Part shown: positions 7,553-56,721 of the stretch, piece by piece
Layout of the letters: each line of letters begins with the position of its first letter
How positions within the stretch are numbered: position 1 is the stretch's first letter
From: Elusimicrobiota bacterium
GTDB taxonomy: Bacteria; Elusimicrobiota; UBA8919
Direction of reading: 5' to 3'
DNA: 64,000 bases
NCBI GenBank assembly: GCA_043802785.1
Contig: JAZDKR010000024.1
Span: 97-64,096 of the forward strand
Notes under the pieces: generated by a model
The model's database searches: none
Seen by the model: only the letters and a program-made list of their open reading frames with translations
Told to the model about the DNA's origin: nothing
Position numbers and translations under genes: made by a program

Positions 7553-7566
7553 ACATTCACTATTCC

Positions 7567-14972: not shown

Positions 14973-14974
14973 CC

Positions 14975-25781: not shown

Positions 25782-28091
25782 TTAATAGACAAAAAGCATT
25801 TCTCTGTATTTCGGAAGAATCCAGTATTCGTCCCCGGTATGTTCTTCAAGGGCGTCAACCGTTTCCCTTAAATTGTACATCAAAGGAATTATTTCCATGC
25901 AATAGAAATTTGCCTTTTCGTCTTCTCGTTCTATTTTTTCCTTTTTGTCAAGCACGGACTGAAGTTTCTCTGTCTTTTCGTAAAGTTCTACGACAAGTTT
26001 TGAATACATTGAGACAATTTCCGATTCTTTTTTCAGCACTTTGGCATCAATTCCATTTATGCAAGGTAGGACAGCCGAGTAGGTTCGCCTGTGGCGAAGG
26101 TCTTTAGACCCTGTCATCTCGGTTGAACGGTCTAAAGACCGTTCACTACCATTCATTGAAATTCCTAAACATGACCTTAAGTTATTTACCGACTCTGCCA
26201 AAACATTCTGATATTTGACTACTGCGGGAAACACAAGTGTTTTAGCCATCATCAAAACGGTCTCAACTTCTATATTTACAACTTTTATGTACTGCTCAAC
26301 CAATATCGTGTAAATTGATTCTATCTCAACTTCGCTCAGAACATTTAATCTTGTGAAGACATCTTTATTTTTTTTGGTTACAAGGTCTTTCAACGATTCG
26401 GGTGTGGTTTTTTTATTCGGCAATCCGCGTTTTTTTGCTTCTTTTTCCCAGGCAGTATCATAGTTGTTACCTTCAAATCTTATTGGCGCTGTTTCAGTTA
26501 TTAAAGGAATAATCGCTTTTAATACAACCCTGTTAATATCTTTCTCTTTTTTCAGATTATCCTCTATTTCTTTATAGAGGTCGTTCAGAACATCGGCGAC
26601 AATAACATTCAGCGTATAATTTGCCATCGCAATAGAATGTGATGAACCCACCGCTCTGAACTCAAACTTGTTGCCGGTAAACGCAAATGGAGAAGTCCTG
26701 TTTCTGTCGCTAGTGTCTCTATTTATCGTCGGTAATTTGCCGATACCCATATCTATAATTGCCTTATCACTATAATCCGCTTTTTTATTTTTTTCCAGAT
26801 TGTTTAGAATTTCTGTGAGTTGTTCTCCCAGAAATATGGAAATTATCGCAGGTGGTGCCTCGTTTGCACCTAATCTATGGTCATTACCGGCTGTCGCAAC
26901 AGTTGCCCGCAACAAATCAGAATACTTATAAACGGCTTTCATTGTAGCGAGCAGGAAAGTTAAAAACTGCAAGTTTGCATGCGGCGTTTTGCCTGGTTCA
27001 AGTAGATTCGTACCGTCGGAATCCGCCATGGACCAGTTATTGTGCTTTCCAGAACCGTTTATGCCCAAAAACGGTTTCTCGTGCAATAAGAGTGCGAGAT
27101 TGTGCCTGTTTGCAATCTTCTTTAATGTTTCCATTATTATCTGGTTATGGTCGGTGGCAACATTGCTGTCCTCAAACAACGGTGCGATTTCAAACTGTGC
27201 AGGAGCAACTTCGTTGTGCCTTGTTTTCACGGGAATTCCAAACTTAAAAAGTTCTAACTCCGAATCATGCATAAACGCAAGAATTCTTTCCCTGATGCTG
27301 CCAAAATAGTGATCCTCCATTTCCTGACCTTTGGGCGGTTTCGCACCGAATAATGTTCTGCCGGTAATGATTAAATCCGGTCTTCTGTTGTAATATGCTT
27401 TGTCAACCAAAAAATATTCTTGTTCGGAACCCACAGTCGCATAAACCCTGTTTATTTTTTTATTTCCGAAAAGGTGCAATATCTTTACGGCAACTTCACT
27501 TAATCTGTCCATTGAACGCAGAAGCGGCGTTTTTTTATCCAATGCCTCACCCGTATATGATAAAAATACACAGGGAATGCAAAGTGTTGTGCCGTTGACG
27601 GCTTCAACCAAAAATGCCGGCGAGGTGGGATCCCACGCAGTATAACCCCTCGCTTCAAAAGTACTTCTCAACCCACCGCTTGGGAAAGAAGAAGCATCTG
27701 GTTCGCCTTGTATAAGATTGCTTCCTGAAAATCTTTCTATGATTTTACCATCTTTGCTGAAACTCAGAAAACTGTCATGCTTTTCCGCCGTCAAACCCGT
27801 CATCGGATGAAACCAGTGAGTAAAATGTGTCGCACCTCTGCCAATTGCCCATTCTTTCATACCTTGTGCAACTTCTTCCGCTAATATCGGTTCAACTCTC
27901 CCGCCTTCCTTGATTATTTTTTTTAACGCTTCATATGTTTTGTAAGGCAGATGTTTTTTCATTGCCTCGTCGTTAAAAGAGTTCATCCCGTATATTTCCG
28001 AGATAGGTTTCCCTTTCATTTTCGTGCTAATCGTCTGGCATAAATTTCTCTGGTTTGTAATTTCTGAAATTATCTGTTCTCTGTATTGCAT
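25782..28091 (-). CDS. glnN: Glutamine synthetase type III. Carries an in-frame repeat insertion at about 26046-26160.
   Basis: 769 aa. The N-terminal HFTHWFHPMTGLTAEKHDSF and the overall length fit GSIII. The insert encodes MNGSERSLDRSTEMTGSKDLRHRR. Confidence 0.8.
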   Translation of the reverse strand: MQYREQIISEITNQRNLCQTISTKMKGKPISEIYGMNSFNDEAMKKHLPYKTYEALKKIIKEGGRVEPILAEEVAQGMKEWAIGRGATHFTHWFHPMTGLTAEKHDSFLSFSKDGKIIERFSGSNLIQGEPDASSFPSGGLRSTFEARGYTAWDPTSPAFLVEAVNGTTLCIPCVFLSYTGEALDKKTPLLRSMDRLSEVAVKILHLFGNKKINRVYATVGSEQEYFLVDKAYYNRRPDLIITGRTLFGAKPPKGQEMEDHYFGSIRERILAFMHDSELELFKFGIPVKTRHNEVAPAQFEIAPLFEDSNVATDHNQIIMETLKKIANRHNLALLLHEKPFLGINGSGKHNNWSMADSDGTNLLEPGKTPHANLQFLTFLLATMKAVYKYSDLLRATVATAGNDHRLGANEAPPAIISIFLGEQLTEILNNLEKNKKADYSDKAIIDMGIGKLPTINRDTSDRNRTSPFAFTGNKFEFRAVGSSHSIAMANYTLNVIVADVLNDLYKEIEDNLKKEKDINRVVLKAIIPLITETAPIRFEGNNYDTAWEKEAKKRGLPNKKTTPESLKDLVTKKNKDVFTRLNVLSEVEIESIYTILVEQYIKVVNIEVETVLMMAKTLVFPAVVKYQNVLAESVNNLRSCLGISMNGSERSLDRSTEMTGSKDLRHRRTYSAVLPCINGIDAKVLKKESEIVSMYSKLVVELYEKTEKLQSVLDKKEKIEREDEKANFYCMEIIPLMYNLRETVDALEEHTGDEYWILPKYREMLFVY

Positions 28092-29465: not shown

Positions 29466-29588
29466 AATGACTAACTTTTAGATGTTTTTCTCTCCAATCC
29501 TGATGAAGAACAATCGCCGCCATAATAACTGCAAAAAGTATTAACATCCCAAGACCAATATAAAGACCAATATCTTCCATATTCATTC
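29466..29588 (-). CDS. Small hydrophobic peptide of 40 aa (MNMEDIGLYIGLGMLILFAVIMAAIVLHQDWREKHLKVSH), translationally coupled to the upstream gene.
   Basis: An aaaggagaa ribosome-binding site and an ATGA stop/start overlap. Has a paralog at 30560-30652 with the conserved C-terminus KEKHLKVSH. Confidence 0.5.
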
Positions 29589-29786
29589 TCCTTTATCAAT
29601 AATGGTTCCAATAATTACAAATATTATCCAAAAACTCGCACCTAAAAATATCCTGATAATATTTAACTCTCCTGCTACAAAAGAGCCCAAAATAATTATC
29701 GCAAAAACAAAGTTGGCTGCGTTAAAAAATGCTTTTGCTAAATTTTCTCTTTGTTTTTTTGTAAAATTCATTCTGAGCATAATCAT
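29583..29786 (-). CDS. Small two-TM membrane protein of about 62-67 aa.
   Basis: Has a paralog at 30646-30858 (TKKQ(R/K)ENLAK(A/V)FFN ...). Preceded by a conserved promoter. Confidence 0.55.
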   Translation of the reverse strand: MIMLRMNFTKKQRENLAKAFFNAANFVFAIIILGSFVAGELNIIRIFLGASFWIIFVIIGTIIDKGE

Positions 29787-29815
29787 ACAAAATTATCAAA
29801 TTTTGTCAACCCCGT
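29787..29815 (-). promoter_or_regulatory. Sigma70-type promoter, TTGACA-N16/17-TATGAT. The -10 element overlaps the start codon, so the mRNA may be leaderless.
   Basis: Minus strand reads ttgacaaaatttgataattttgtatgattatgctcagaatg. Conserved in the copy at 30859-30887. Confidence 0.55.
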
Positions 29816-30077
29816 CAGAAAGAATTCCAAAATTTCTAACGTGGTCAAGTGCTTTTTTGGTTTTCCCGAATGAAAAATCTTTAATCCCACTTTGGAATTA
29901 AAGACCTCAATGTCTGACGAACATTTTCTAACCAACTATGGTTTGTAAACTATTTTTTAACTAATACAAACAAAATATATCTTGTTACATATTCTCACTG
30001 TTGTCATTGCTTCGTTGTCCCGACTTGTCGGGACTCCTCGCAATGACGCTTTGCATCAATTTACTCCCGAGCGACCT

Positions 30078-30420
30078 TCATATTTCTGTTGGTATAACCT
30101 CTTTTGAGCGAAACTCTTTTGGGACATAAATATATCCGGAATATGGTTTTTTTTCTTTAACAACCATTCCGGCAAGACCTTCGCCTATTTTAAGTGGTGG
30201 TTTTTTCAAATACTCATTTGAAATTGACTGGGAAGCCCTGATTACAAGTTCATTGTTTTCATTTAAAAGCATTAACGAACATATCTTGAAACCAAATACT
30301 TCAGCAGTAATTGTTACAATCAATTTAAGGATATCGTCAAGATAAAGTTCTGAAGTTATTGCCTGTGATATTTTAGTGAGTGCCTCTATTCACTTACACT
30401 TTTTTCTTTCATATTTTTTT
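30078..30420 (-). pseudogene. Truncated, frameshifted paralog of the GAF-ANTAR gene at 24823-25515. Only the N-terminal third remains.
   Basis: About 70 percent identity to residues 30-120 of the full gene, plus an upstream stretch in another frame. No ANTAR domain. Confidence 0.7.
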
Positions 30421-30559
30421 CCTCCACAAAATAAAAAATCCTCATACCGTCTTTGGCGGATGGCAACATATCATCCGCCTATGGCATGAGGACTACATCG
30501 TCCTTTACTTTAATTATATCAAAAGCAATATAATTTTGCTAATGACTAACTTTTAGATG

Positions 30560-30652
30560 TTTTTCTTTTCTATTCTGGTTAATAACAATTCCACCGATAA
30601 CCAAAGTAAAAGCTAACGCCACAAAAAATAACAAAGTAATCTCATTCATATC
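30560..30652 (-). CDS. Small hydrophobic peptide of 36 aa, the second copy.
   Basis: MNEITLLFFVALAFTLVIGGIVINQNRKEKHLKVSH. Same coupling arrangement as the first copy. Confidence 0.5.
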
Positions 30653-30858
30653 CCGTCTCCTGTATCAAGTATCACACCAATAATTAAAAACGCAAGAAAC
30701 AATATTACACCAACAATAAATGTAAATAGCGAAAATTTATCTGGCGTGGCGATTTTTCCTATAATAAGGGAAGCAAAAACAATTTGACTTAAATTAAAGA
30801 AAACTTTTGCTAAATTTTCTTTTTGCTTTTTTGTTAATTTCATTTCTGACATAATCAT
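30646..30858 (-). CDS. Small two-TM membrane protein, the second copy.
   Basis: Paralog of 29583-29786. The promoter TTGACA-N17-TATGAT is conserved at 30859-30887. Confidence 0.55.
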   Translation of the reverse strand: MIMSEMKLTKKQKENLAKVFFNLSQIVFASLIIGKIATPDKFSLFTFIVGVILFLAFLIIGVILDTGDGI

Positions 30859-31081
30859 ACAAAATTAAAAAAATTTGTCAAGTACTTTTTTTGAGAGTTA
30901 TTCAGGTTTGTGGCAAAAATATGAAGTTATTAAATTGTCAAGCCAGAAATTTATTGTATCATTTCCGTATCATCATTGTGAGATTGGTATTGTCAAAAAT
31001 AAAATGAAAAAAAAGACTACCACGAAAACACGTCTGACTGCCATGCCTGTCGTCAGCAGGCGTGGCTATGCTTCTATATTT

Positions 31082-35467: not shown

Positions 35468-35570
35468 AAAATACCGCTAACCCGACGCAAAACTTACACG
35501 CTAAACCGACGCTAAAATGTTTTGCGTCTGTTCTGCGTTCTTGTTCCGCGTCTGTTTTGCGCTCCTTTTA
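35468..35570. promoter_or_regulatory. ACGCTAAA / GCGTCTGTTTTGCG phased repeat array (B1), upstream of rplY.
   Basis: Related to the arrays at 47156-47232 and 49262-49350. Confidence 0.55.
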
Positions 35571-36625: not shown

Positions 36626-38172
36626 ATCACCTGTCTCCCTCTCGCAATTGCCAGTTTATTGTCAGGAACATTCTCAGTAATGGTTGAGCCGGCAGCAATC
36701 AAAACCCCTTTTCCTATTTTAATAGGCGCAATGAAATTAGTATTGCTTCCGACGAATGTGGAATCGCCAATTTCCGTTTTATGTTTATTTTTACCGTCGT
36801 AATTACAGGTAATCGTGCCGGCACCTATATTTATATTTTTTCCGAGTGTAGAATCACCGATATATGAAAGATGTGAGACCTTTGTATTTTCACCAATAAT
36901 TGATTTTTTAATCTCCGAGAAATTACCGATGAGAGCGTGCCTTGCTATTTTTGTTTCCTTTCTTATATGAGAAAACGGACCTACTCGGACATCGTCGGCA
37001 ATTTCGGCTCCGCAAACAAAAGATGCCTTTATTTCAACATTTTTTCCGACGATGCAATCCTCAATATAACTAAAAGGTCCAATCGTGCTGCCCGTTTTTA
37101 TTTTCGTTTTGCCTTTGATAATTGTTGAAGGTAAAATAGTGACATCTTTTTCAATCTCAACCGTTTCCTCTATGTGAACTGTCCCGGGATTGACAATCGT
37201 AACGCCGGCGAGCATTAGATTTTTAAGAACCTTTTCTCTGATGTAATTCTCCGCTTGGGCAAGTTCGCATCTGTTATTTATTCCCATAATTTCCTTGAAA
37301 TCCTTAATTTTATAGGCGATAACTTTTTTGCGGGAACCGCTTCGACTTAAAATTGACACAACATCCGTCAGATAATACTCGCCTTTTGAATTATCGTTTT
37401 TTATCTCGCGCAGTGCAGAAAAAAGTTCTTTCGACGAAAAGACATAAATACCTGAGTTGATTTCCTTTATTTTTTTGATTTCATATGAGGCATCTTTTGC
37501 CTCAACAATTGACTTAACCGTTCCATCGATATTTCGGACAATTCTTCCGTAATGCGAAGGATTTTCTATCTCGCAAGTAAGCACTGTCGCAACAGCTTTT
37601 TCTTTTTTGTGAACTGATAGCAATTTGTCAACAGTTTCTTTCGTAAGAAGCGGAACATCACCGGAAAGTATAACCAAATCGCCTGTTCCCTCACAACGGG
37701 ACTCCGCACATTTAACAGCATCACCGGAACCAAGTTGTTTTTCCTGTTCAACAAAAACCACCTGACTAAGAGGTTGTCCGACAACCCCTGTTTTTTGGTT
37801 TTGACCGTCATTCCGTGCTTGACACGGAATCCATTCTCCGACGGTAACACAATTTTCTGAGAGCCTGCCCCGCGCTTTGACACGGGGGACCTTTTGACCA
37901 TTGTCGGACAACCTCCCAAGAGCCGTCATGCTTGCCATTCTATCGCTTATCGCTTTTTTGACAAGTTCTGCTTTGTGCCCTACAACGACAATTTTTTTAT
38001 CAAAACCGTTGTCTATAATTTCAATGACCCTTTCAATAATTGTTTTGCCCAAAATTTTATGAAGAACTTTCGGCGTTTCCGACTTAAACCTTGTTCCTTC
38101 ACCTGCAGCAAGAATAATACAAACAATACTTCCCATAGCAATTGAAATACAATGGAACCACGATGGAGACAC
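36610..38172 (-). CDS. glmU: Bifunctional GlmU (UDP-GlcNAc pyrophosphorylase / GlcN-1-P acetyltransferase). Carries an in-frame insertion of about 60 aa, at about 37764-37947.
   Basis: N-terminal LAAGEGTRFKSETPKVLH, a C-terminal left-handed beta-helix (hexapeptide) domain, and the glmU-prs-rplY-pth synteny. The insert encodes WIPCQARNDG, which is also present in a spurious ORF in the 18000-18365 repeat block. Confidence 0.85.
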   Translation of the reverse strand: MSPSWFHCISIAMGSIVCIILAAGEGTRFKSETPKVLHKILGKTIIERVIEIIDNGFDKKIVVVGHKAELVKKAISDRMASMTALGRLSDNGQKVPRVKARGRLSENCVTVGEWIPCQARNDGQNQKTGVVGQPLSQVVFVEQEKQLGSGDAVKCAESRCEGTGDLVILSGDVPLLTKETVDKLLSVHKKEKAVATVLTCEIENPSHYGRIVRNIDGTVKSIVEAKDASYEIKKIKEINSGIYVFSSKELFSALREIKNDNSKGEYYLTDVVSILSRSGSRKKVIAYKIKDFKEIMGINNRCELAQAENYIREKVLKNLMLAGVTIVNPGTVHIEETVEIEKDVTILPSTIIKGKTKIKTGSTIGPFSYIEDCIVGKNVEIKASFVCGAEIADDVRVGPFSHIRKETKIARHALIGNFSEIKKSIIGENTKVSHLSYIGDSTLGKNINIGAGTITCNYDGKNKHKTEIGDSTFVGSNTNFIAPIKIGKGVLIAAGSTITENVPDNKLAIARGRQVIKKRD

Positions 38173-41329: not shown

Positions 41330-41548
41330 ATCTTGCTGTGCGTGACTGCGGAGCATCAATTTATAAGGTCATTGCGAGCGTTAGCGCTTTGTGACAGAAG
41401 TTCCCGATAGTACTTGTCATTGCGAGGTGAAACCGCCCGCCAAACTGTTACCGAAATTGTGAAGTATTACACATAGGCGGGTGGCAATCCCATAGCGAGA
41501 TTGCTTCGTCGGTCGCCCGAGGCGACCTCCTCGCAATGACACTTCACC
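41330..41548. repeat. Cluster of CATTGCGAGG / CCTCGCAATGAC palindromic elements.
   Basis: gtcattgcgagcg..., gtcattgcgaggtgaaaccgcccgcc ... cctcgcaatgacac. Relatives at 29990-30075, 44150-44290 and 48270-48312. Confidence 0.7.
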
Positions 41549-42348
41549 CTACTTCTTTCTGTATGCCTCTAAATATGAGTCGCAATAAAGTTGTTTGCCG
41601 AGGAGCAGTTCTGTTGTTATCATTGAATTCATCAATTCTTTATCAAGTGGATTTAAAATTGCAGCGTCAAGTCCTGCCTCCAAAGCCATAACAAGAAATG
41701 TTCTGTCAACGAGCATTCTGTCAAGTGTTCCCTGTGACACATTTGACAAACCCAAAATTGTTTTCGGAGGTGGGTCGCAAATAATTTTACATTGTTTGAT
41801 TGTTTCCAAGACAGCACGGGAATGATCCTGGGCAACATTTACAGGAAGAATAACCGCATCAATATAAAGATTTTCCATCTCAATTCCATACTCCATTGAT
41901 GAGCAACTATATTCGCCGCAATCTCTAACCGTGCTTCTGCATTCGCAGGAACTCCTGACTTAGTCATTGTCAAAGCGATAACTTTTGAGTTGTATTTTTT
42001 TGCAAGAGGAAGAAGAACATCAAGTTTTTCTTTCTGCCCTGAAGTAGAATTCAAAAATGAGCCGGGACCTGCCAATGAAAGCCCTCTTTCCATAACAACT
42101 AATTTTGTCGTGTCAACAGCGAGTGGTTTATCAGTCACTTCACGAATTACCGTAATTAACCATTCCATATCTTTCAATGGATCTATTGATGCTGGTCCCA
42201 CATTTACATCAAGGACATCAGCACCTGCTTCTAATTGTTTTTTCGCAAGTTCCTGAATTATCAGTTTGTTTTTTGTCTGAATTGCTTCACTGACATTTTT
42301 AAACATCCCGTTAATCTTTTCACCGATAATAAGCATAAACACCCCCAT
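41549..42348 (-). pseudogene. Pterin-binding methyltransferase (MeTr/AcsE-like, methyltetrahydrofolate:corrinoid methyltransferase family), split by a frameshift near 41839-41896.
   Basis: N-terminal MLIIGEKINGMFKNVSEAIQ ... LDVNVG and a C-terminal half in the second ORF. The frames overlap by about 58 nt, with no homopolymer at the junction. Confidence 0.6.
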
Positions 42349-42365
42349 TAAAATCCGTGAATCGT

Positions 42366-42417
42366 GTAGTTGCCCGATTTATCGGGCATAAAGGCGCTCA
42401 ATAAATTGAGCAACTAC
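42366..42417. repeat. Complete 52-bp element bounded by terminal inverted repeats, gtagttgcccgatttatcgggcataaaggcgctcaataaattgagcaactac.
   Basis: The two ends, gtagttgc and gcaactac, are inverted repeats of each other. Confidence 0.8.
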
Positions 42418-42477
42418 AAAACTGCGACTACACAAACCATGCAACATTGAAATTCTTCACCTGCGGTGAACCTACTC

Positions 42478-44149: not shown

Positions 44150-44290
44150 TTTTGTTTGTCATTGCGAGGTGAAACCACCCGCCCCAAAGGGGCGAGGCCT
44201 CGCCATATGCGGGTGGCAATCCCAAAAAATAGATTGCTTCGTCCTCCGACTTCGTCGGAGTCCTCGCAATGACAACCAAATTAAAATTTG
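44150..44290. repeat. CATTGCGAGG-family palindromic element pair.
   Basis: gtcattgcgaggtgaaaccacccgcc ... cctcgcaatgacaac. Confidence 0.7.
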
Positions 44291-44390: not shown

Positions 44391-45884
<1,494 letters not shown>

Positions 45885-45936
45885 AACATAGCCGTTGTCG
45901 TGTAGTTCAAATTCCCTATTCCATATTCCCTACCTA

Positions 45937-47155: not shown

Positions 47156-47232
47156 ACCGCTAAACTGACGCTAAACTTTGAAAACCCGCGAAACTAACGC
47201 GAAATGTTTTGCGTCTGTTTTGCGGTTGTTAG
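47156..47232. promoter_or_regulatory. ACGCTAAA / ACGCGAAA phased array (B2), upstream of metK.
   Basis: Sequence ccgctaaactgacgctaaactttgaaaacccgcgaaactaacgcgaaatgttttgcgtctgttttgcg. Confidence 0.55.
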
Positions 47233-48882
47233 ATTATCACAAATTTTTTCGGCAAAATCAAGTAATTTTTTTGTTTTGCCGAGTGAATCTGTTTCAGAGT
47301 ATGTCCTTAAAATCGGCTCTGTTCCCGACGGACGAAGCAATAGCCAACCTGTCCCGCCAAGGCGGGACGGATCAAAAATTATTTTTATTCCGTCATAGGT
47401 TCTGATTTCCTTGATCCCGCCGAGGCGAGACGCGAATTGCCACGAATTTCCGCCAAAGGCGGACGAATTGGGACGAATTTTTTGTTCAATCTGTTTAACA
47501 AATTCTTGCTTATCAACGGGCTTTGAAAGTTTTATATCTCTTCTTAAATAATATGATTTCCCGAATCTTTTTTGCAAATCATCAACTAACTGTGAAAGTT
47601 TTTTCTTTGTTTGCGAAAGCATCTCGGTAATTAAAAGTGCATTTAAGATACCGTCTCGTTCCGGTATGCTGCCTTTCCATCCGTAACCGCCGGATTCTTC
47701 ACCACCGAGCAAAACATTTTCAGCGAGCATTTTTTCACAAACATACTTGAAACCGACAGGAACCTCTTCAAAAGGGAGACAAAATTTTTTCGCAATTCTT
47801 TCGGAAAGATACCCAAGTGAAATCGCCTGAACAACTTTTCCTTTTATTTTTCTTCCTTCTACAAGATACAACAAAATCAGAGGAAAAACAATATGCGGTG
47901 AAAGATATCTGCCTTTGTCGTCTATAACACCCAAGCGGTCAGCGTCGCCGTCAAAAGCAAAACCTACGGCTGCCCCATTTTTCAATACCACTTTTTTTAG
48001 TTCTGTGAGATTTTTTTCTATCGGCTCGGGATTTACTCCGGCAAATAATGGGTCATGAGAATTATGTATTGAATAAATCTTTGAGATTCTTCGTCCCGTT
48101 ATGCGGGACTCAGAATGACTTTGCGAGTCATTTTTGAATCCGCCACAGACGGACTCAAAAATACCAACGCCGCTTCCATGCATATAATCAAGGACAATTT
48201 TGGATTTTGATGATGGATTCAATCTAACAAGTGATTTCAGATATTTTTTGTAATCGCTGATAATATCCACTCTTCGCGTCATTGCGAGGTCGTCACTGCG
48301 ACCTCGCAATGACAATTGTTGGATATCCTCATTATTAGTTTTGACAGCACTCTTATACAGATGTTTTGAAATTGTATTTATGATTTTTTCCGAAACAGAA
48401 CCTCCGTATTGAAGTTTTATTTTTAGACCGTTCCAGTCGGGCGGATTATGACTTGCCGTTATCATCACCCCAAGACAATTGTTTTTTTTACAAAAAAATG
48501 AGACCGATGGCGAAGTTGCTGCCGTCTGCGAAACCGCCGAATGTATCCCATTCGCAGAAATAACTCTTGCAACATGGAGTGCAAATTTCTCCGAAAGAAA
48601 CCTGTTGTCATACCCGACGATAACGACAGGGGATAGGGGGTAGGGGATAGGGTGTAGCGGCGAATGTAAATTCGCTAAATTTGTCCGCCTAGGCGGACCG
48701 CTACACCCTACTCCCTCCACACTACACTCTGCCTTTATATAATCCGCAATCGCCTGAGCAACTATTCCAACATTCTCAAAGGTAAAGTCCCTTGCAATTA
48801 TCCCGCGCCACCCGTCAGTACCAAACTTAATGGCAGGGGATAGGGGATAGGGGATAGGGGATAGTAGTTTTTGTTTTTCCAT
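47194..48882 (-). CDS. Phosphomannomutase / phosphoglucomutase family enzyme carrying about five in-frame repeat insertions.
   Basis: FGTDGWRG, TASHNP, RPSGTEP. Inserts at about 48834-48870, 48627-48729, 48270-48312, 48069-48132 and 47415-47472. Confidence 0.8.
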   Translation of the reverse strand: MEKQKLLSPIPYPLSPAIKFGTDGWRGIIARDFTFENVGIVAQAIADYIKAECSVEGVGCSGPPRRTNLANLHSPLHPIPYPLSPVVIVGYDNRFLSEKFALHVARVISANGIHSAVSQTAATSPSVSFFCKKNNCLGVMITASHNPPDWNGLKIKLQYGGSVSEKIINTISKHLYKSAVKTNNEDIQQLSLRGRSDDLAMTRRVDIISDYKKYLKSLVRLNPSSKSKIVLDYMHGSGVGIFESVCGGFKNDSQSHSESRITGRRISKIYSIHNSHDPLFAGVNPEPIEKNLTELKKVVLKNGAAVGFAFDGDADRLGVIDDKGRYLSPHIVFPLILLYLVEGRKIKGKVVQAISLGYLSERIAKKFCLPFEEVPVGFKYVCEKMLAENVLLGGEESGGYGWKGSIPERDGILNALLITEMLSQTKKKLSQLVDDLQKRFGKSYYLRRDIKLSKPVDKQEFVKQIEQKIRPNSSAFGGNSWQFASRLGGIKEIRTYDGIKIIFDPSRLGGTGWLLLRPSGTEPILRTYSETDSLGKTKKLLDFAEKICDNLTTAKQTQNISR

Positions 48883-48884: not shown

Positions 48885-49256
48885 TTATTGTCCGTGTTTA
48901 TCAGTGTCCCTGCCATAATCGTCTTCCAGACGGACAACATCCCAGACCTCCGGAGTTGAAACCTCCAAAAGTGTTACATCACAAAATTTAGAATGCATCC
49001 TGTGAATTTTTTTCGGCGGGATGACGATAACTGAACCTTCTTTCATTATTTTTTTCTCGGAGCGAAGCGAAGATCCCGCAAAGCGGGATAACTCCATAAT
49101 GTATCTACCCTTTAGCGTGTAAATCGTCTCGTGTTTTATTTTATGATACTGTTTGCTTAAGCGATGACCTTTTTTAATAAAAAGGATTTTGCCCACATAT
49201 TTTTTCGTCTGAGCGAACCACTTTTCATATCCCCACGGTTTTTTGACAATTTTCAT
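48885..49256 (-). CDS. Stand-alone cupin, similar to the mannose-6-phosphate-isomerase type II C-terminal domain. Carries an in-frame repeat insertion at about 49049-49094.
   Basis: KPWGYEKW ... LSKQYH. The insert ELSRFAGSSLRSEKK is encoded by ggagcgaagcgaagatcccgcaaagcgggat. Confidence 0.55.
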   Translation of the reverse strand: MKIVKKPWGYEKWFAQTKKYVGKILFIKKGHRLSKQYHKIKHETIYTLKGRYIMELSRFAGSSLRSEKKIMKEGSVIVIPPKKIHRMHSKFCDVTLLEVSTPEVWDVVRLEDDYGRDTDKHGQ

Positions 49257-49261
49257 AAAGA

Positions 49262-49350
49262 ACCGCTAAACTGACGCTAAACTTTGAAAACCCGCGAAAC
49301 CAACGCTAAATGTTTCGCGTCTGTTTCGCGTTCTTTTTCGCGTCTGTTTT
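49262..49350. promoter_or_regulatory. ACGCTAAA / GCGTCTGTTT phased array (B3), upstream of the cupin gene.
   Basis: Nearly identical to 47156-47232, plus extra gcgtctgtt units. Confidence 0.55.
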
Positions 49351-49356: not shown

Positions 49357-50475
49357 CTATAGTTTGCTGTAACTTTTTATAACTGTTTTGTCGGCAATGG
49401 TGCATCCATCGGTTAAATAAGAATGTTCTTCAATTGTGCAATTTTTGCCAATAACTGATTTTTCAATTTTGCTATTTTTCTGTATTCTTGTGCCGTCTAA
49501 AACTATGCAATCGGATAGAAAACAATTTTCCCCAATTTTAACATTATTTCCTAAACATACATTGCCGGAAATTGTGGTTTTTTCAGATAGTTGGGTATTA
49601 TCACCCACGACAAGATGACCGAAAACTCTTACACTTTTTGCTATTTTTGATTCTTTGCCAATAACATTTTTTTTCATCTGGTTCATCAAATCATTGTGAA
49701 TCTGCAAATATTTTTCCGTAGTCCCAATATCAATCCAGTAAGCAGAATAAATGTAACCATAAAAAGGAATTTTTTTGTTAAGTAATGTAGGGAACAGTTC
49801 CCGCTCGACGGAATAAATAACATCAAGCGGCATTTCCTTGAAAATTTCCGGTTCAAAAATATATGTGCCGGCATTGACAGTATCTACGGTAATCTGGCTA
49901 ATAGATGGCTTTTCCAGAAATTGCAATATCTTTCCGTCTTTTGCCGTCTCAACAAGACCAAAACTTGTGGGGTCTGGAACTCTGATGAGGGAAACAGTCA
50001 CCTTTGATTTTTTTTTCTTGTGGAATTGTACAAGTTTTGCCAGATTAATTTCCGTCAGAACATCCCCGTTGAAAATAATAACGGAATCGTCCACAAATTT
50101 TTCGGCATTTTTAATTGCGCCACCAGTCCCAAGAGGCGTTTTCTCAACAGCATATGATATTTTGACACCGAATTTTTTACCATCACCGAAATATTTTTTA
50201 AACTCCGACGGTAAATAAGCCATGCAAAGAATAATGTCTTTTATTCCGTACTTTTTGAGAAGTTCTATCTGATACAAAGAAAACGGTTTGTTGAGCACGG
50301 GCAACAACGGTTTTGGAGTGTTGCAAGTCAATGGTCTAAGCCGCGTGCCAAATCCGCCAATAAGAATTATTGCTTTCATAGTTCGCTCACTCCGTTCACT
50401 CACACGCGAATTTACGCTAATTCCCGCTTCGGCGGGACTAATATTCGCGAATATCTGCGTTCCATTCGCGACCAT
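49357..50475 (-). CDS. Mannose-1-phosphate guanylyltransferase (GDP-mannose pyrophosphorylase) with a left-handed-helix C-terminus. The likely start is MKAIILIGGFG, near 50379.
   Basis: MKAIILIGGFGTRLRPLT...PKPLLP, the nucleotidyltransferase signature. Confidence 0.75.
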   Translation of the reverse strand: MVANGTQIFANISPAEAGISVNSRVSERSERTMKAIILIGGFGTRLRPLTCNTPKPLLPVLNKPFSLYQIELLKKYGIKDIILCMAYLPSEFKKYFGDGKKFGVKISYAVEKTPLGTGGAIKNAEKFVDDSVIIFNGDVLTEINLAKLVQFHKKKKSKVTVSLIRVPDPTSFGLVETAKDGKILQFLEKPSISQITVDTVNAGTYIFEPEIFKEMPLDVIYSVERELFPTLLNKKIPFYGYIYSAYWIDIGTTEKYLQIHNDLMNQMKKNVIGKESKIAKSVRVFGHLVVGDNTQLSEKTTISGNVCLGNNVKIGENCFLSDCIVLDGTRIQKNSKIEKSVIGKNCTIEEHSYLTDGCTIADKTVIKSYSKL

Positions 50476-51534: not shown

Positions 51535-52307
51535 ATAATATTTTTCGAAATCTTGGATTTGCCAATCGATCTATCGGCAAAAAATATAGGGTACTCAAAA
51601 ATTTTATATCCGAGTTTGTGTGCCCTGTATTTCATTTCTATCAAAAATCCATAACCCTCTGACTTCACTTCGTCAAGATTTATATTTTCCAGCACTTTAC
51701 GACGGAAACCCATAAAACCAGATGTGCAGTCATTAACAGGCATACATAAAACTGTTTTCGCATACAAATTCCCCAGACGGGATATTATTTTTCTATGGAC
51801 GGGCATTGAATTACAACCGCCTTTTACATAACGAGAACCGACTACTAAATCATAACTTTTGAGTTTTTTTAGGAACCCCAAAAAACATTCCGGGTTATGG
51901 GAAAAATCTGCATCCATAGTAAAAATAAAATCAAAATCTCTTACCAAAGCCCACTTAAATCCTTGAATGTATGCTGTCCCAAGTCCAAGTTTTTTTTCAC
52001 GATGAATAATTTCTAATTGAGATTGCGAAGATTGTTCCAATTCTGTCATATGAGATTGCTTCGTCGTCCCGATCTTATCGGGACTCCTCGCAATGACACT
52101 TTGTGCCGCTTTTAACCCTTCCGATATCTCTCCCGTTCCGTCGGGCGAATTATCGTCAATGATTAAGAGATTGAGATCGCCCGCCACACGGATCGGCGAG
52201 TCCGCCTTTGGCGGAAGATTGAGAACTTGGTCAACAATCTTTTCTATATTTTCTCTCTCGTTATATGTCGGGATTATAATCAAAACTTTACTTTTTTTTA
52301 GTGACAT
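51477..52307 (-). CDS. GT2 glycosyltransferase, polyprenol-phosphate mannosyltransferase-like. Carries two in-frame repeat insertions at about 52175-52214 and 52040-52105.
   Basis: IIIPTYNEREN ... DDNSPDGT. The inserts encode PPKADSPIRVAGD and ...ARSPDKIGTTKQSHMTEL... Confidence 0.7.
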   Translation of the reverse strand: MSLKKSKVLIIIPTYNERENIEKIVDQVLNLPPKADSPIRVAGDLNLLIIDDNSPDGTGEISEGLKAAQSVIARSPDKIGTTKQSHMTELEQSSQSQLEIIHREKKLGLGTAYIQGFKWALVRDFDFIFTMDADFSHNPECFLGFLKKLKSYDLVVGSRYVKGGCNSMPVHRKIISRLGNLYAKTVLCMPVNDCTSGFMGFRRKVLENINLDEVKSEGYGFLIEMKYRAHKLGYKIFEYPIFFADRSIGKSKISKNIIWEAIFLVWKLKFMEIQPQ

Positions 52308-53436
52308 ATTTTAATGTTTTCTTTGAATAATTGTAATAAGAAATATGCGGGCGACCTTGTTTATCAAGCATTATGGATGTATCAAATCCGACAATACCTT
52401 CGGCATCAATCGTCTGAATTTTCCATTCAGAACCCGTCCAGTAAGCATATTTAAGGTCAGAGTTGCCATAATACGAAACGTGCGGAGTCACATCAGGCAA
52501 CTTTGCATCCAGAGTTATTGATGTATATTCACCAACATAACCTTCACTGTCAACCGTCTGGATAGCCCATGCAGAACCAGTCCAGTGAGCATATTTTAAA
52601 TCCCTATTGGTAGCATCATAATATGCTATATGCGGAAAATTATTGCTATCAACCACTATGGAACTATCTTCACCAACTTCACCTGTTGAATCAACCGTCT
52701 GAATATCCCACGAAGAACCAGTCCAACGAGCATATTTTAAATCACCGTTGGTAGAATCATAATATGCTATATGCGGAAAATTATTGCTATCAATCGCGAT
52801 GGAGGTGAACTTGCCTACCGCACCGGCTGAATCAACCATCTGAATATTCCACGAAGAACCAGTCCAATGAGCATACTTTAAGTCGCCGTTGGTAGAATCA
52901 TAATATGCTATATGTTTGAAATCGTTACTAACCGCTATGGAACTATCTTCACCGACTTCGCCTATTGAATCAACCGTCTGAACATCCCACGATAAACCAT
53001 CCCAACGAGCATACTTTAAATCCTTGTTGGTAGAATCATAATACGCTATATGTGAAAAATTGCTACTGACTGCTATAGATGTGAACTTGTATGTTTCACC
53101 GTTAGACGGAGTATATTGTTTTTCCCAAGAATTGCCTGTCCATTTAAGATACCCTACACCTTTTTTGCTACAAAACGAAAGATTAGGAAAATCATTACTA
53201 TCAAGGCACATTGAAGCATACTCTCCTTCTTCATCACTTTCTGAAGTAAGCGTTTGGATATCCCAGCCGTCAACTGGCAAAGATACCACCACTTTTTCGT
53301 CTGTTAGATTTACATTTAATCTTCTTTCCGACTCACAATAAAGGCAGGAAGTGGTAAGTAGTAAGTGGTAAGTGGTAAGGATTAAGAAGGCAGAATTAAG
53401 TAACTTGTTCATCTGTACAATCTGTAATTTTCTCAT
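52288..53436 (-). CDS. Secreted protein made of about 6 tandem repeats of roughly 46 aa (YYDSTNGDLKYA[HR]WTGSSW.IQTVDS.G.VG..SSI ... PHIA).
   Basis: Signal peptide. At the DNA level this is a tandem unit of about 138 bp with high identity. Confidence 0.6.
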   Translation of the reverse strand: MRKLQIVQMNKLLNSAFLILTTYHLLLTTSCLYCESERRLNVNLTDEKVVVSLPVDGWDIQTLTSESDEEGEYASMCLDSNDFPNLSFCSKKGVGYLKWTGNSWEKQYTPSNGETYKFTSIAVSSNFSHIAYYDSTNKDLKYARWDGLSWDVQTVDSIGEVGEDSSIAVSNDFKHIAYYDSTNGDLKYAHWTGSSWNIQMVDSAGAVGKFTSIAIDSNNFPHIAYYDSTNGDLKYARWTGSSWDIQTVDSTGEVGEDSSIVVDSNNFPHIAYYDATNRDLKYAHWTGSAWAIQTVDSEGYVGEYTSITLDAKLPDVTPHVSYYGNSDLKYAYWTGSEWKIQTIDAEGIVGFDTSIMLDKQGRPHISYYNYSKKTLKYVTKKK

Positions 53437-53537: not shown

Positions 53538-54866
53538 TTATTCTCCATCCTCTACATACGACAGTCCAATAAAAAAAGTAATCGGTAATAATATACGCGC
53601 GGTCGTTAAATTATTCTCAAAAAAACCGGCAATCATCAGCATTATGATAGAATACCCAACAGCAAGGTTTAGTGTGCATCTAACACTTCCTTTTTCAGCC
53701 ATCCGTGCACGCTTAAACGCCATTATGGAATTGCCAAACCAAAACAGGACAAAAAGAATTAAACCAATTAAACCCTCGCTAACACCGACATTCAGATATG
53801 TATTATGCGGATGTCCCTTGAGTACATTTAATATATCTTTTTCACTACTTCCCCCTTTATAACACCTGGAAACAATCCATAATAACGGATATTGCTCCTT
53901 TTCCTTTTCAAAATATACTTCTACCTCTTTCCCCCAATTTTCATAGCCGACACCAATTATAGGATGGTTTTTCATTATTTTCAATGCTGTTCCCCACATC
54001 CATAATCGCTCAACATTACTTAAATTTTCTTTCGTATCAAATATACTTATAATTCTACTTTTTATGCTGAAAGAATACTTAAATATACCAATAAACAAAA
54101 GGAAAATCAATCCGGTTCCTAATATGAACCATTTTATTTTTTTTCTCAATAGTATCAATAGTACCGTCAATAAAGTTGCTACATAATATGTTCTTGATCC
54201 ATTCAAAAGAACCGCAATAAAATTAAGCAACGTCAAAACAAATAAACCAACTTTTATTTTCACATTTTCATTAGAATAACAAAAAAATATAAAAGATACT
54301 ATTGCTATTATACTGTAATACCCTCCGGTGTGTAAAAAATTCCTGAAATTCAAACCGATAAATCTGCCGTTTATAAACGGTTGGTTTTTCAAAAATGGAT
54401 AATCAAAATGAAAAATATGCTGTAAAATCCCCAGCAATACAACAAAAGAAGCAACAACCAAAGTAGAATAAACGATTACTTTTATTTTCTTGATATGTAA
54501 CTGCGGAATAACAAAATACGGAAGATGATCCCAAAATTTCCCTCCGTATTTAATCCAATTTGAAGGATTAAAAAAAACTCTCATTGCACGCCAAAAATAA
54601 AGAAAAAGCAGCGGCAACCCTTCCCAACTGGAAAAAAACTTCTTTCCCAACACGAGATTTATTAAAACAATTAAAAGCAGCAAGCCCAGAATAATATTAG
54701 TAACAGCAATTGAGATTGATGTACTTACACCATAAATAACAAGAAGTATAAATATCGTATCGGTAAATATTTTTTTGTCAGTCAGAATGTTTTTCATATC
54801 TATTTTGTCAACTAAATTGTAGTTGCCTGATTTATCAGGCATAACATCGCCCAATAAATTGGGCAA
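53538..54866 (-). CDS. O-antigen ligase/polymerase family membrane protein. The likely start is MKNILTDKK, near 54797.
   Basis: About 10 TM helices and a periplasmic loop with HPHNTYLNVGVSEGLIG. The reported N-terminal 23 residues are encoded by a miniature element. Confidence 0.65.
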   Translation of the reverse strand: MPNLLGDVMPDKSGNYNLVDKIDMKNILTDKKIFTDTIFILLVIYGVSTSISIAVTNIILGLLLLIVLINLVLGKKFFSSWEGLPLLFLYFWRAMRVFFNPSNWIKYGGKFWDHLPYFVIPQLHIKKIKVIVYSTLVVASFVVLLGILQHIFHFDYPFLKNQPFINGRFIGLNFRNFLHTGGYYSIIAIVSFIFFCYSNENVKIKVGLFVLTLLNFIAVLLNGSRTYYVATLLTVLLILLRKKIKWFILGTGLIFLLFIGIFKYSFSIKSRIISIFDTKENLSNVERLWMWGTALKIMKNHPIIGVGYENWGKEVEVYFEKEKEQYPLLWIVSRCYKGGSSEKDILNVLKGHPHNTYLNVGVSEGLIGLILFVLFWFGNSIMAFKRARMAEKGSVRCTLNLAVGYSIIMLMIAGFFENNLTTARILLPITFFIGLSYVEDGE

Positions 54867-54870
54867 CTAC
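54819..54870. repeat. GTAGTTGC/GCAACTAC miniature element. It supplies the TAG stop of the capD-like gene.
   Basis: Sequence gtagttgcctgatttatcaggcataacatcgcccaataaattgggcaactac. Confidence 0.8.
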
Positions 54871-56721
54871 TTGTCTATATTCGCGGGGGCATAATTGGGA
54901 ACCATTTCTTTTAATTTAAGAATGATTTTTTCCTCGTCCATTATAACAGCAAAATGCTCCAGTTCCCTTATATCTTTCCTGATTTTAGATGGGTCAAGAT
55001 TTTCAGGAGTGGTTACATATATTTTTCTATGCTTTGTAATTTTATCTTTTTCTTTGTCCAAAAGTATTTCTTCGTAAAGTTTTTCGCCGGGACGAAGTCC
55101 AACATATTTAATTGAAATATCTTTGTCTAATTTAAGCCCCGAAAGAGCAATAAGGTTTTTTGCCAAATCAACAATTTTTATCTGCTCACCCATATCCAAA
55201 ATAAAAATTTCGCCGACGCCAGAACCCATCGCACCCGCCTGTAGGACAAGTTGCGCCGCCTCGGGAATACTCATAAAATATCTTCGAACATCCGGGTGAG
55301 TTACCGTTACAGGTCCGCCATCCTCAATCTGTTTTTTGAACAATGGAATTACGCTGCCTGTTGAACCGAGAACATTTCCGAAACGAACCGCTATAAACTT
55401 TGTTTTGCTGAACCCTGCTTTTGCCTGCAAAATTTTCTCCGCAACCCTCTTTGTTGCACCCATAACATTTGCTGGATTGACTGCTTTATCGGTAGAAATA
55501 AGAACAAACCGTTCAACTTTGTAATGATGTGAGGCATAAATTAAATTTCTGGAACCAATAATATTATTTTTTATCGCCGAGACCGGATTTTCTTCCATCA
55601 GAGGAACATGCTTATGCGCTGCAGCGTGAAAAACGACATCCGGCCTGTAAGTAAAAAATATGTGCCTCAATAACCCGACATCCTTTATATCTCCAATTAT
55701 TGTCTTATATTTCAATTGGGGATAGAGGGTGGAAAATTCAACTCCGAGATAATAAACATAATTTTCGTGGTTATCCAAAAGAATCAAAAGTTCAGGCGAA
55801 AATTTCACTATTTGCCGACACAACTCCGCACCAATTGAACCACCGGCACCGGTGACCAAAACCCGTTTGTTTCTGATGTAGGAACTTATTTCCGTTTCGT
55901 CTATTTTTACCGATTCCCTGCCCAACAAATCATCCGGCTGAACTTTGCGCGGCTTCACTTCAAGATGCCCGGATATTATTTTATCAAACCCTGGAACGAT
56001 TTTTATATTTGCATCCGTCATCTCGCAATACGAAAGAATGTCTCTTATTGCTTCGCCTTTCACAGACGGTATTGCCAAAATTATTTCTTCAACATCGTAT
56101 TTTGAAACCACATCAGGAATAATTTTTCTGCCACCGAAGATTTTCAAACCGAATATAGAATGCCTTTTTTTGGCAGTGTCGTCGTCAATAAAACCGACTA
56201 TATTCAAGCCAGCGAGCAAATTATTCTGACACTCCCTCAAAACCGCTATTCCCGCCTGACCCGCACCGACAATCAGAACATTCTTTTTTTTTTGTTGTCA
56301 GTGATTCCTTGAATCTTTCTCTTATTAAACGGGTAAAAAACCTGACACCCGATACAAAAACAGTGCACAAAATAAAGTCAATTATGAAAACGGAACGAGG
56401 AAATCCGAAAAAAGTATGATAAAAAAATACGGTTGCAGCGAAAACGACATTAGCAAGAAAATTAGCGAGTATTATATCCCATAAATCGCCAATACTTACA
56501 TATCTCCACAAACCTGTGAACAGTCCGAAAAAATAAAAGAAAAGAAGTTTTATGATAATCAAAAACGGAAGAGTTCTTAAAATAACTTGCCAGTTTTCAG
56601 GAAAAAATGTAAATTCAAACCGAAGATAAAACGCCGAGATATATGCAATAATGATCAGGCACAAATGAAGCAGCACAATCAGAGGCCTTCGTAAATTAAC
56701 TATTATTTTTTTTATGTTCAT
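54867..56721 (-). pseudogene. CapD/WbpM/PglF-like membrane-anchored polysaccharide dehydratase, split by a +1 frameshift at an A10 tract (56284-56293).
   Basis: The N-terminal ORF (56221-56721) has 4 TM helices. The C-terminal ORF has the SDR dehydratase domain. The alternative frame across the tract reads KNVLIVGAGQAGIAVLRECQ. A9 would restore the reading frame. Confidence 0.75.

Follow-up and report, generated by a model that had tools for sequence, protein, structure and literature searches.

How much foreign structured DNA can a housekeeping enzyme absorb with its reading frame and catalytic core kept? The question is raised by a phosphomannomutase/phosphoglucomutase gene (PMM/PGM, an alpha-D-phosphohexomutase; hereafter PMM) in a stretch of 64,000 nt from an uncultured Elusimicrobiota bacterium (contig JAZDKR010000024.1 of assembly GCA_043802785.1), which we refer to as the window and to which all positions belong. 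The protein contains seven segments that most of its homologs lack. In our assessment it is very probably a functional PMM/PGM in which the small repeats of the genome's intergenic spacers have, over a long time, settled in permissive, presumably surface-exposed loops and at both termini, with the in-frame copies in loops being kept; the mode of mobility, the translation of the inserts and their functional neutrality we infer. Cases of this kind are already known; the window adds one of unusual density, from a phylum not among the earlier examples, that shows how far such absorption can go.

Integrity of the host gene

An earlier note on the window, made from the sequence alone, had described an intact 562-aa PMM/PGM frame with the motifs FGTDGWRG, TASHNP and RPSGTEP. 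This was borne out by the open reading frame (ORF) itself, by Pfam (PGM_PMM_I, II, III and IV, four of four above gathering scores in the 562-aa protein) and by an alignment of 118 sequences (the protein and 117 homologs), in which the conserved motifs of the family, FGTDGWRG included, are invariant or near-invariant columns. The four loops of the active site are untouched (Table 1). The match to Pfam domain I falls into two stretches, with insert 2 as the break. The best solved relative is the Thermus phosphomannomutase 1TUO (464 aa, E=2e-53); in the HMMER alignment with this chain the breaks and gaps coincide with the inserts, and query residues 48-85 face 8 chain residues. An AlphaFold2 model computed from the 118-sequence alignment has a mean predicted local distance difference test score (pLDDT) of 87.1, and Foldseek aligns it to 1TUO with a template modelling (TM) score of 0.91, normalised by target length.

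The ratio of nonsynonymous to synonymous divergence (dN/dS) over 467 ungapped codons of the PMM core is 0.19-0.21 against three relatives and 0.15-0.24 among those relatives. The core is thus under purifying selection, and there is no sign of relaxed constraint. The ATG of PMM lies 2 bases 3′ of the stop codon of the upstream cupin gene, and the gene order (nucleotidyltransferase, cupin/mannose-6-P-isomerase-like gene, PMM, MetK, AhcY) is kept in three related contigs (NCBI, JGI, Logan), which identifies the gene as the PMM step of a GDP-mannose operon.

Position and structure of the extra segments

We defined an extra segment as a stretch of the 562-aa protein whose alignment columns are filled in less than 30% of the homologs. 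Column occupancy gives seven such segments (aa 3-10, 59-81, 187-201, 251-266, 470-484, 506-510 and 555-562). Only one of the 118 sequences is longer than this protein (median 477.5 aa; insert-free orthologs 463-473 aa), ~17% of which is repeat-derived. DNA alignment with the insert-free ortholog of contig stretch L001 (473 aa) leaves clean in-frame gaps with lengths that are multiples of three. The five segments named in the earlier note, which had counted about five palindromic-repeat insertions, were all found where it had placed them, but the actual count is six internal or N-terminal inserts (including a second SRLGG, insert 6) plus one C-terminal read-in. The palindromic ones are inserts 2, 3, 4, 6 and, in part, 5, which leaves insert 1 and the C-terminal tail as non-palindromic. 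The repeat unit of the first two segments, given previously as 8 nt, is 7 nt (CTATCCC/GGGGATA), and since three units make 21 nt the encoded peptide has a 7-residue period, LSPIPYP.

Insert 1 is without structure on the mRNA, while its template strand, (GGGGATA)4, is a canonical four-tract G-quadruplex (G4) motif. It has matches of 40-44 bits at 5809-5868, 7549-7602 and 48613-48672, and pLDDT is below 50 for aa 1-12. No in-frame ATG, GTG or TTG occurs between codon 1 and the conserved IKFGTDGWRG, so the N-terminal tract must belong to the coding sequence (CDS). Insert 2, between helix 1 and strand 2 of the AlphaFold2 model, is a composite. Its outer stem consists of degenerate 7-mers paired with their complement, and its loop holds a TCCGCC-TA-GGCGGA hairpin (48684-48697) and an ATTCGC-type mini-hairpin, an architecture that suggests nested insertions. 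The 3′ arm has 36-38-bit matches to other 7-mer tracts, and pLDDT of the insert is 44-51.

Insert 3 appears as a 45-nt in-frame gap against L001 (pLDDT 58-71), and its GTCATTGCGAGG has six further exact copies within the window. Insert 4 corresponds to an in-frame gap of 42+9 nt against all three relatives (pLDDT <50 for aa 251-264); it is recognisable mainly by its architecture, which is that of the GTCATTGCGAGG-hairpin-CGAAGCAATCTC family of the window (the GTCATTGCGAGG...CGAAGCAATC elements described below). Insert 5 has a 34-bit match to 52201-52215 and a ATTCGCGT copy at 47430-47437. At insert 6 the gene is in frame and 15 nt longer than in all three relatives; the insert is not present in 21 close homologs, the exception being P0009 with 2 additional residues. 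Segment 7 differs in kind, as here the frame reads into an intergenic repeat: 47137-47238 matches 49243-49332 at 70 bits, a further copy lies at 35497-35550, and the PMM stop TAG occupies a position read as TGG in the other copy. The relatives stop at least 8 aa earlier.

Low pLDDT in the model is confined to the inserts (the C-terminal end and aa 1-12, ~56-81, 181-200, 251-264 and 471-490). Their place in the model is between secondary-structure elements, which makes them putative surface loops. As RNA, four of the palindromic inserts are predicted to form very stable hairpins: -60.3 kcal/mol (z=-7.35) for insert 2, -28.7 kcal/mol (z=-7.13) for insert 3, -15.9 kcal/mol (z=-4.0) for insert 4 and -16.4 kcal/mol (z=-3.74) for insert 6, against -15.7 kcal/mol (z=-1.5) and -9.8 kcal/mol (z=-0.2) for two control segments of PMM.

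The segments as dispersed repeat DNA

Windows of 36 nt from the PMM gene were searched against the rest of the 64 kb, with insert and core windows serving as an internal control. Insert windows reach a median of 28.2 bits (maximum 44) and core windows 22.3 (maximum 32; Mann-Whitney p=1.4e-11), and the inserts are richer in GC (0.55 vs 0.38). Several of the motifs involved are far more frequent than in shuffled sequence: TCCGCC-N2-3-GGCGGA, found in inserts 2 and 5, occurs 7 times in the window vs 0 expected, ATTCGCGT of insert 5 occurs 25 times vs 2.3, and four-fold G3N4 tracts occur 9 times vs 0, with two of the nine in PMM. GC-rich perfect hairpins number 31 in the window vs 1-8 in Markov controls, and 14 of these lie wholly within mapped ORFs. 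The 7-mer tracts of inserts 1 and 2 match tracts at 5809-5956, 7125-7161, 7549-7602 and 14826-14976. Masking of 12-mer repeats across the window proved too noisy in AT-rich sequence (17 kb masked vs 10-11 kb in controls) and was discarded; hairpin scans and a sliding BLAST with bit-score thresholds were used in its place. A gathering-threshold scan against Rfam returned a single tRNA and no family for any of the repeats.

The earlier note had proposed that the segments are encoded by sequences dispersed elsewhere in the window, and a search for their DNA did recover copies within the 64 kb, both intergenic and inside other genes. The proposal holds for the segments as a set, with the p value and the named copies given above, but not equally for each of them, the matches of insert 4 being weak (28 bits).

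Table 1. Features of the PMM gene, its inserts and related elements in the window.
Feature	Position	Strand	Description and evidence
PMM/PGM (alpha-D-phosphohexomutase) CDS	47194..48882	(-)	single ORF, 562 aa, ATG start, internal stops 0
Catalytic phosphoserine loop TASHNP (Ser144), aa 142-147	48442..48459	(-)	A143 S144 H145 N146 invariant in 118 sequences; untouched
Metal-binding loop DGDADR, aa 311-316	47935..47952	(-)	D311 G312 D313 D315 R316 invariant in 118 sequences; untouched
Sugar-binding loop GEESGG, aa 394-399	47686..47703	(-)	E395 E396 S397 G398 G399 invariant in 118 sequences; untouched
Phosphate-binding loop RPSGTEP, aa 517-523	47314..47334	(-)	R517 S519 G520 T521 E522 P523 invariant in 118 sequences; untouched
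Insert 1, four tandem 7-mers (CTATCCC sense, GGGGATA template), LSPIPYPLSP, codons 7-16	48835..48864	(-)	heptamer run detection
Insert 2, composite hairpin, ~aa 52-84	48622..48738	(-)	inverted repeat I24; RNA fold
Insert 3, aa 187-201 SLRGRSDDLAMT, palindrome, domain I/II junction	48278..48313	(-)	hairpin scan; 15-bp perfect stem GTCATTGCGAGGTCG / CGACCTCGCAATGAC
Insert 4, aa 250-266 SQSHSESRITGRRI, domain II, REP-like GTCATTCTGAG-TCCCG-CATAA-CGGGA-CGAAGAATCTC	48085..48135	(-)	gap alignment, fold
Insert 5, aa 470-486 RPNSSAFGGNSWQFASR, domain IV	47425..47475	(-)	AATTCG-type short direct repeats around TCCGCC-TTT-GGCGGA hairpin (47449-47463)
Insert 6, aa 505-510 PSRLGG, bare 7-8-bp GC hairpin GTCCCGCC-TT-GGCGGGAC	47351..47368	(-)	hairpin scan; turn just before RPSGTEP
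Segment 7, C-terminal tail TAKQTQNISR + stop	47194..47226	(-)	frame reads into ~75-nt intergenic repeat
SLRGRSDDLAMTR, PMM peptide stretch across insert junction(s)			
REP-like GTCATTGCGAGG...CGAAGCAATC copies in the window	30010-30050, 41416-41540, 44158-44273, 44541-44590, 52051-52101		
AhcY, three inserts; REP-like GTCATAGCGAGG-AGTCCCGAT-ACA-ATCGGGAC-GACGAAGCAATCTC in frame	44527..44604	(-)	ortholog alignment; 56-bit match to 52033-52116
Cupin/mannose-6-P-isomerase-like gene, hairpin ATCCCGC-AAA-GCGGGAT, RFAGSSLR, +8 aa	49073..49089	(-)	ortholog alignment, hairpin scan
Dpm1-like glycosyltransferase, REP-like element, aa 67-90	52033..52116	(-)	PDB 5MLZ alignment broken at query 67-90
Dpm1-like glycosyltransferase, second insert with TCCGCC hairpin	52183-52236	(-)	5MLZ alignment gap, aa ~31-40
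GlmU, 57-aa composite hairpin insert, aa 79-135	37768..37938	(-)	PDB 4AAW: query 17-78 and 136-517 align with contiguous chain residues 4-66 and 65-445
Type III glutamine synthetase, in-frame hairpin element	26083..26142	(-)	PDB 3O6X alignment broken at query 641-691
Pyruvyl-transferase gene, in frame, 35-nt element of glutamine synthetase, inverted	8989-9048		inverted repeat I19, 94%

Frame conservation and probable translation

That every insert is a multiple of three bases and free of stop codons, as claimed previously, was upheld for all inserts by the alignment gaps and a frame check. Of the three sense frames, only the one in use is open in inserts 2 and 4. TAG is contained in the complement of the 7-mer in the 5′ arm of insert 2, and the one unit that would place this TAG in frame reads GAG instead. 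Such conservation of frame argues that the inserts are translated.

Structured elements within a CDS can also escape translation. GC clusters and 'byp' hairpins in the mitochondrial genes of fungi are small, structured and selfish elements that coding DNA tolerates; the byps are skipped instead of being translated, and no particular frame is required of them. The segments of PMM could likewise be excised from the RNA or bypassed by the ribosome, or could belong to a recently dead pseudogene, and the high stability of the hairpins (-60 kcal/mol for insert 2) and the presence of pseudogenes in the window would fit with this. We nevertheless consider it very improbable. Neither bypass nor excision would select for lengths divisible by three or for the lack of stops, yet all six internal and N-terminal segments have both properties, and the closed alternative frames of inserts 2 and 4 and the GAG codon in insert 2 point the same way. 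The dN/dS of the core (~0.2) equals that of the relatives, the catalytic residues are all intact, and inserts common to the related locus L002 are still in frame after a long divergence.

On the reading that PMM is a working enzyme colonised by repeats, the elements would arrive via transposition-like copying or by template switching and slippage, and selection would retain only those copies that are in frame, free of stops and situated in loops away from the four catalytic loops. Survivors would be translated as disordered loop extensions and would then decay neutrally, grow by nested insertion or be deleted.

Several observations weigh against this account. Inserts 4 and 6 have only background-level matches within the 64 kb (28-30 bits, with a core maximum of 32). 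No target-site duplication is definable for the inserts. A gene for a transposase or a REP-associated tyrosine transposase (RAYT; REP, repetitive extragenic palindrome) was not identified among 14 window proteins scanned with Pfam, so that the mobility of the elements is presumed. Translation is read from the conserved frame, and the exposure of the loops from pLDDT and secondary structure. Insert 6 lies only ~7 residues before the phosphate-binding loop, so that neutrality is not guaranteed. That gene decay does occur in this genome is shown by two further genes of the window, a remnant of amtB and a pterin-binding gene that is split. A 5-bp candidate duplication, CAAAG, around insert 4 was rejected because CAAAG(T) precedes other family members too and is part of the element consensus.

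Occurrence and turnover in related genomes

The lengths of close PMM homologs (60-68% identity) span 463 to 605 aa. When a neighbour-joining tree was built from the core alignment, the PMM of the window was sister to P0004, which at 605 aa is the only longer member. About 23% of this sister ortholog was counted as repeat-derived. An inverted-repeat search of the sister locus L002 gave no clear result for the large PMM inserts there, an outcome that decay could explain, and these inserts are therefore not tied to repeat families.

Inserts 3, 4 and 6 are private to the PMM of the window and absent even from the sister ortholog; at site 3, P0002 carries 15 aa of another sequence. Different sequences occupy site 5 in P0001, P0002, P0004, P0009 and P0012. 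Only site 2 is common to related Elusimicrobiota in recognisably homologous form, as a 7-mer hairpin (LHPTPYALHP-type) present in many lineages, with other elements in P0007 and P0008. P0010/11 are without a site-2 insert though nested among carriers, which implies a loss. The inserts of AhcY and of the cupin gene are common to L002 and still in frame at a synonymous divergence (dS) of ~0.9; there, the cupin hairpin has decayed and the AhcY copy is partly decayed, with stem pairing kept only through two G-U pairs. Taken together, the lineage differences, decay and loss indicate that the insertions are old and recurrent and prone to both decay and deletion. The insert load is a feature of the whole clade and is subject to turnover. 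A further case is seen in L003, where the C-terminal region of AhcY (~7300-7360) contains a (GGAAGTC)n 7-mer tract in frame (SRKSEVGSRK) at the same AhcY site that holds a REP-like element in the window and in L002.

The earlier note had allowed that orthologs of unrelated lineages might carry the same segments, in which case they would be native. None outside the immediate clade does, and the insert-free orthologs P0010/11, P0015/16, P0019, P0022 and 1TUO (Thermus) are without all of them. Native, lineage-specific elaborations of the loops could account for a site-2 segment that is recognisable in several related Elusimicrobiota, and artefacts of assembling a repeat-rich metagenome bin have to be kept in mind for a contig that comes from a metagenome-assembled genome (MAG), but we consider both very improbable. 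The same sequences are found in intergenic spacers and in unrelated genes, three of the inserts are missing even in the sister ortholog, and in-frame inserts of this kind recur in that operon in independent assemblies from NCBI, JGI and Logan. A chimeric assembly is unlikely to keep the frame six times, the chance being (1/3)^6, or ~0.001, on length alone.

A more substantial question is whether some inserts have been co-opted in cis, for translation pausing at domain boundaries, for stability of the polycistronic mRNA or as a slippage on/off switch at (CTATCCC)4. Because one 7-nt unit shifts the frame, slippage in the N-terminal tract could switch the gene and thereby make the supply of GDP-mannose for surface glycans phase-variable. 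Such roles would suit the location of insert 3 exactly at the junction of domains I and II and that of insert 2 between helix 1 and strand 2, as well as the four units of the N-terminal tract, the number preferred in G4-forming heptamers (PMC4692102), at codons 7-16 of a gene for a surface-polysaccharide pathway. They would also suit the two C-to-T changes in the AhcY element of L002, which still pair as G-U in the sense RNA, and the persistence of inserts over dS ~0.9. However, L002 has only a decayed version of the cupin hairpin, there are closely related orthologs that lack inserts altogether, and unrelated elements occupy the same loops across lineages, which fits permissiveness better than a specific function. 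Four units are short for efficient slippage, and the 90% identity cluster of PMM has a single member, which leaves no copy-number variants to compare. Within PMM, a terminator scan found no hairpin with a T-run behind it on the coding strand, so that terminator-like tails are absent there. We therefore regard co-option as unlikely, and nothing here requires a regulatory or phase-variation role, for instance of the N-terminal 7-mer tract.

Element classes and their distribution

Three classes of element can be distinguished: 7-nt tandem repeats, some of them arranged as hairpins; REP-like GTCATTGCGAGG...CGAAGCAATC hairpins; and minimal TCCGCC/GGCGGA hairpins. The REP-like family combines conserved arms with a hypervariable self-complementary core and extends well beyond Elusimicrobiota. 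In a scan of one genome per species, GTCATTGCGAGG-N12-30-CGAAGCAATC was found in at least 120 contig stretches (L004-L123) from more than 15 bacterial phyla. The 22 outer bases of GTCATTGCGAGG...CGAAGCAATC are identical among these contigs, while the inner hairpin is free to vary and is still self-complementary. Among the matches listed, hosts include Chloroflexota, Patescibacteria, Planctomycetota, Ignavibacteriota, Verrucomicrobiota, Omnitrophota, Fibrobacter, Firmicutes, and Alpha- and Gammaproteobacteria, the latter two with Ca. Tisiphia, Rickettsiales and Bradyrhizobium among them. An arrangement of copies as inverted dimers is frequent; in the window, inverted REP dimers are found at 41416/41529, 44158/44262 and 187-274. 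A literature search for the sequence of the element returned unrelated primers only, and none of the papers searched has it as a repeat.

The reuse of the same loops by different elements could in part reflect targeting, if elements prefer existing hairpins or single-stranded DNA (ssDNA) loops, and, linked to this, the GTCATTGCGAGG...CGAAGCAATC elements could represent a REP superfamily that is found across bacteria, has not been described so far and is mobilised or bound by a conserved protein. We view this pair of ideas as possible, though rather doubtful. PMM sites 2 and 5 and the C-terminal site of AhcY, which hold different elements across Elusimicrobiota lineages, would fit with it, as would the mini-hairpins nested in the loop of the 7-mer hairpin of insert 2. 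If it were true, a coding loop once hit would attract further insertions in a self-reinforcing way, growing, decaying and now and then being excised, and mobile DNA specific for ssDNA hairpins would drive one mechanism by which protein loops evolve.

Hairpins with a GTAG tag (TGTAG-TYGCCYGA-TTTA-TCRGGCR; D10/D11) form REPIN-like inverted dimers at 187-274, 42365-42419, 45792-45886 and 54818-54872; all are intergenic or at gene edges, and a RAYT-like gene was not seen among the window proteins scanned. Nearly every intergenic spacer has 7-mer hairpins of one common architecture, made from varied units (GGGGATA, GGGTATA, AGGATTA, AGAGATT and AAGTGGT), and one arm of such a hairpin, at 14834-14878, is (GGGTTTA)6, with a unit identical to the telomere repeat of plant type.

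In-frame inserts in other genes

PMM is not alone in carrying inserts. At least 16 in-frame inserts were found in at least 7 of the ~58 genes in the 64 kb (Table 1). Those in AhcY, the cupin gene, the Dpm1-like glycosyltransferase, GlmU and glutamine synthetase were recognised by alignment with orthologs or solved structures, and the one in the pyruvyl-transferase gene by shared DNA alone. The GTCATAGCGAGG REP of AhcY encodes 16 residues, and the insert of GlmU has a 58-bit match to 18265-18324. The repeat load is genome-wide, as seen within the 64-kb window.

Repeats also affect the apparent ends of genes. The nucleotidyltransferase ORF at 49357-50475 (372 aa) starts 32 codons upstream of the MKAIILIGG start of its 340-aa orthologs, and since ATTCGCG-type repeats together with a TTCCCGC hairpin (50422-50437) encode this N-terminal extension, ORF calling has probably produced the long start as an artefact. 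The gene at 52288-53436, which has four tandem 141-nt (47-aa) repeats at 52501-53061 and a weak DUF7253 match (a secreted or repeat protein), passes through the 7-mer tract 53347-53382 at its N-terminus.

Comparison with known repeat systems

Small palindromic repeats inside genes were first seen in Rickettsia, where Ogata and co-workers reportedly described the Rickettsia palindromic elements (RPEs) RPE-1 to RPE-8 in 2000 and 2002. The earlier note had likened the PMM inserts to RPEs. As a mechanism the analogy is apt: in both cases small palindromic repeats occur in many copies in coding and non-coding DNA, and those within genes keep the frame, bring in no stop codon, sit in loops and spare the core of the protein. 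The likeness is one of behaviour, not of established membership of an RPE family. The elements here are also shorter (15-100 nt), fall into several unrelated classes including tandem 7-mers and reside in Elusimicrobiota. R. felis has 728 RPEs, 85 of them within ORFs, in a genome of 1.49 Mb (PMC1166351), an average of ~3-4 per 64 kb, compared with the at least 16 inserts in the same length here and seven segments in PMM by itself. The REP survey by Di Nocera et al. (2013; PMC3733652) describes intragenic in-frame REPs and RPEs from several phyla, sometimes at two sites per ORF. Against such published cases the load of PMM can be called extreme, as had been suggested, but in its own lineage it is not exceptional, given the 605-aa sister and the three inserts of AhcY.

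The REP-like family resembles GTAG- and CGTC-REPs and REPINs, which are presented in PMC3733652 and PMC3116915 as GC-rich hairpins of 20-40 bp, often in inverted dimers and mostly between co-directional genes; a minority, according to PMC3733652, lies in frame inside ORFs, and RPE-4 and RPE-6 are listed there as CGTC REPs. Read on the opposite strand, the window family is ...CGTC-GTCCCGAT-loop-ATCGGGAC-TCC, with a CGTC tag beside an 8-bp stem. The reverse strand of 52051-52101, 44541-44590 and 30010-30050 reads TTCGTC-GTCCCGAY..., while in insert 4 the tag overlaps the stem. The CGTC REPs of PMC3733652 have an unpaired CGTC, TGTC or CCTC tag at one end and a stem of 8-9 bp, a length that the window family shares; differences are a loop of 3 nt vs 4-5, a stem that starts G-C / T-A rather than with A/T pairs, and a TCC tail vs CCA. 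The window family also has additional conserved outer arms, GTCATTGCGAGG and CGAAGCAATC, which do not occur in five supplementary text files of PMC3733652, the consensuses of its families being in Figure 2. Given these differences, the window family is no more than a candidate member of the CGTC-tagged REP superfamily. Elusimicrobia are not mentioned in the abstract or in sections 6 and 15 of that paper, whose full host list is in the figures.

The 7-mers, in turn, resemble the heptameric repeats of cyanobacteria and xanthomonads. Elhai and colleagues are said to have found small dispersed palindromes nested in heptameric repeats in 2008. The short tandemly repeated repetitive sequences (STRR) and the G4-forming GGGNATC repeats (Rehm et al., 2015; PMC4692102) share with those of the window G-rich tandem 7-nt units, a preference for four units, convergent inverted pairs that form stem-loops and a location between co-directional ORFs. 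Like the G4-forming heptamers, the window 7-mers have tracts with at least four G-runs (9 vs 0 expected) and inverted pairs, G4 folding being predicted from sequence. They differ in their units (GGGGATA, GGGTATA, GGGTTTA, AGGATTA and AGAGATT) and in their location, since the published heptameric repeats are reported to be under-represented in coding DNA whereas here two tracts lie inside an enzyme gene, one of them a hairpin with nested mini-hairpins. The in-frame MITEs (transposable elements of the miniature inverted-repeat kind) of Coxiella burnetii (PMC5896051) are likewise small structured selfish elements tolerated in CDSs, but are longer and have terminal inverted repeats.

With these cases, selfish DNA inside genes, so far described for Rickettsia and a small number of bacteria rich in REPs, extends to uncultured Elusimicrobiota, apparently at higher density and with several classes together. 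The clade can serve to map where the loops of PMM/PGM, AhcY, GlmU and further enzymes are permissive, and as a time series of insertion, nesting, decay and loss from which the formation of new protein loops from mobile hairpins can be studied. It is also a warning that protein lengths, start sites and 'hypothetical' low-complexity segments in such MAGs are shaped by repeats.

Other features of the window

The minus strand holds nearly all of the ~58 genes (window 1-64000), and GC skew is negative throughout, as would fit a single replichore arm with strong co-orientation. Next to glnB (28197-28538), the amtB region at 28728-29311 consists of a 70-aa N-terminal ORF (29099-29311) followed by an ORF in another frame that matches only positions 271-399 of Pfam Ammonium_transp, and this ammonium-transporter remnant looks like an internally deleted pseudogene. 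The gene for a pterin-binding domain at 41549-42348 is split, by a frameshift or as a pseudogene, into two ORFs that overlap: 41839-42348, which covers profile positions 23-131, and 41549-41896, which covers 159-243. Larger duplications are present as well: a module of ~0.4 kb with two small membrane proteins is duplicated within 29335-30888 (29411-29809 vs 30486-30881, 83-87% identical), and the fragment 25246-25492 of a GAF-ANTAR gene is copied at 30144-30390 with 77% identity.

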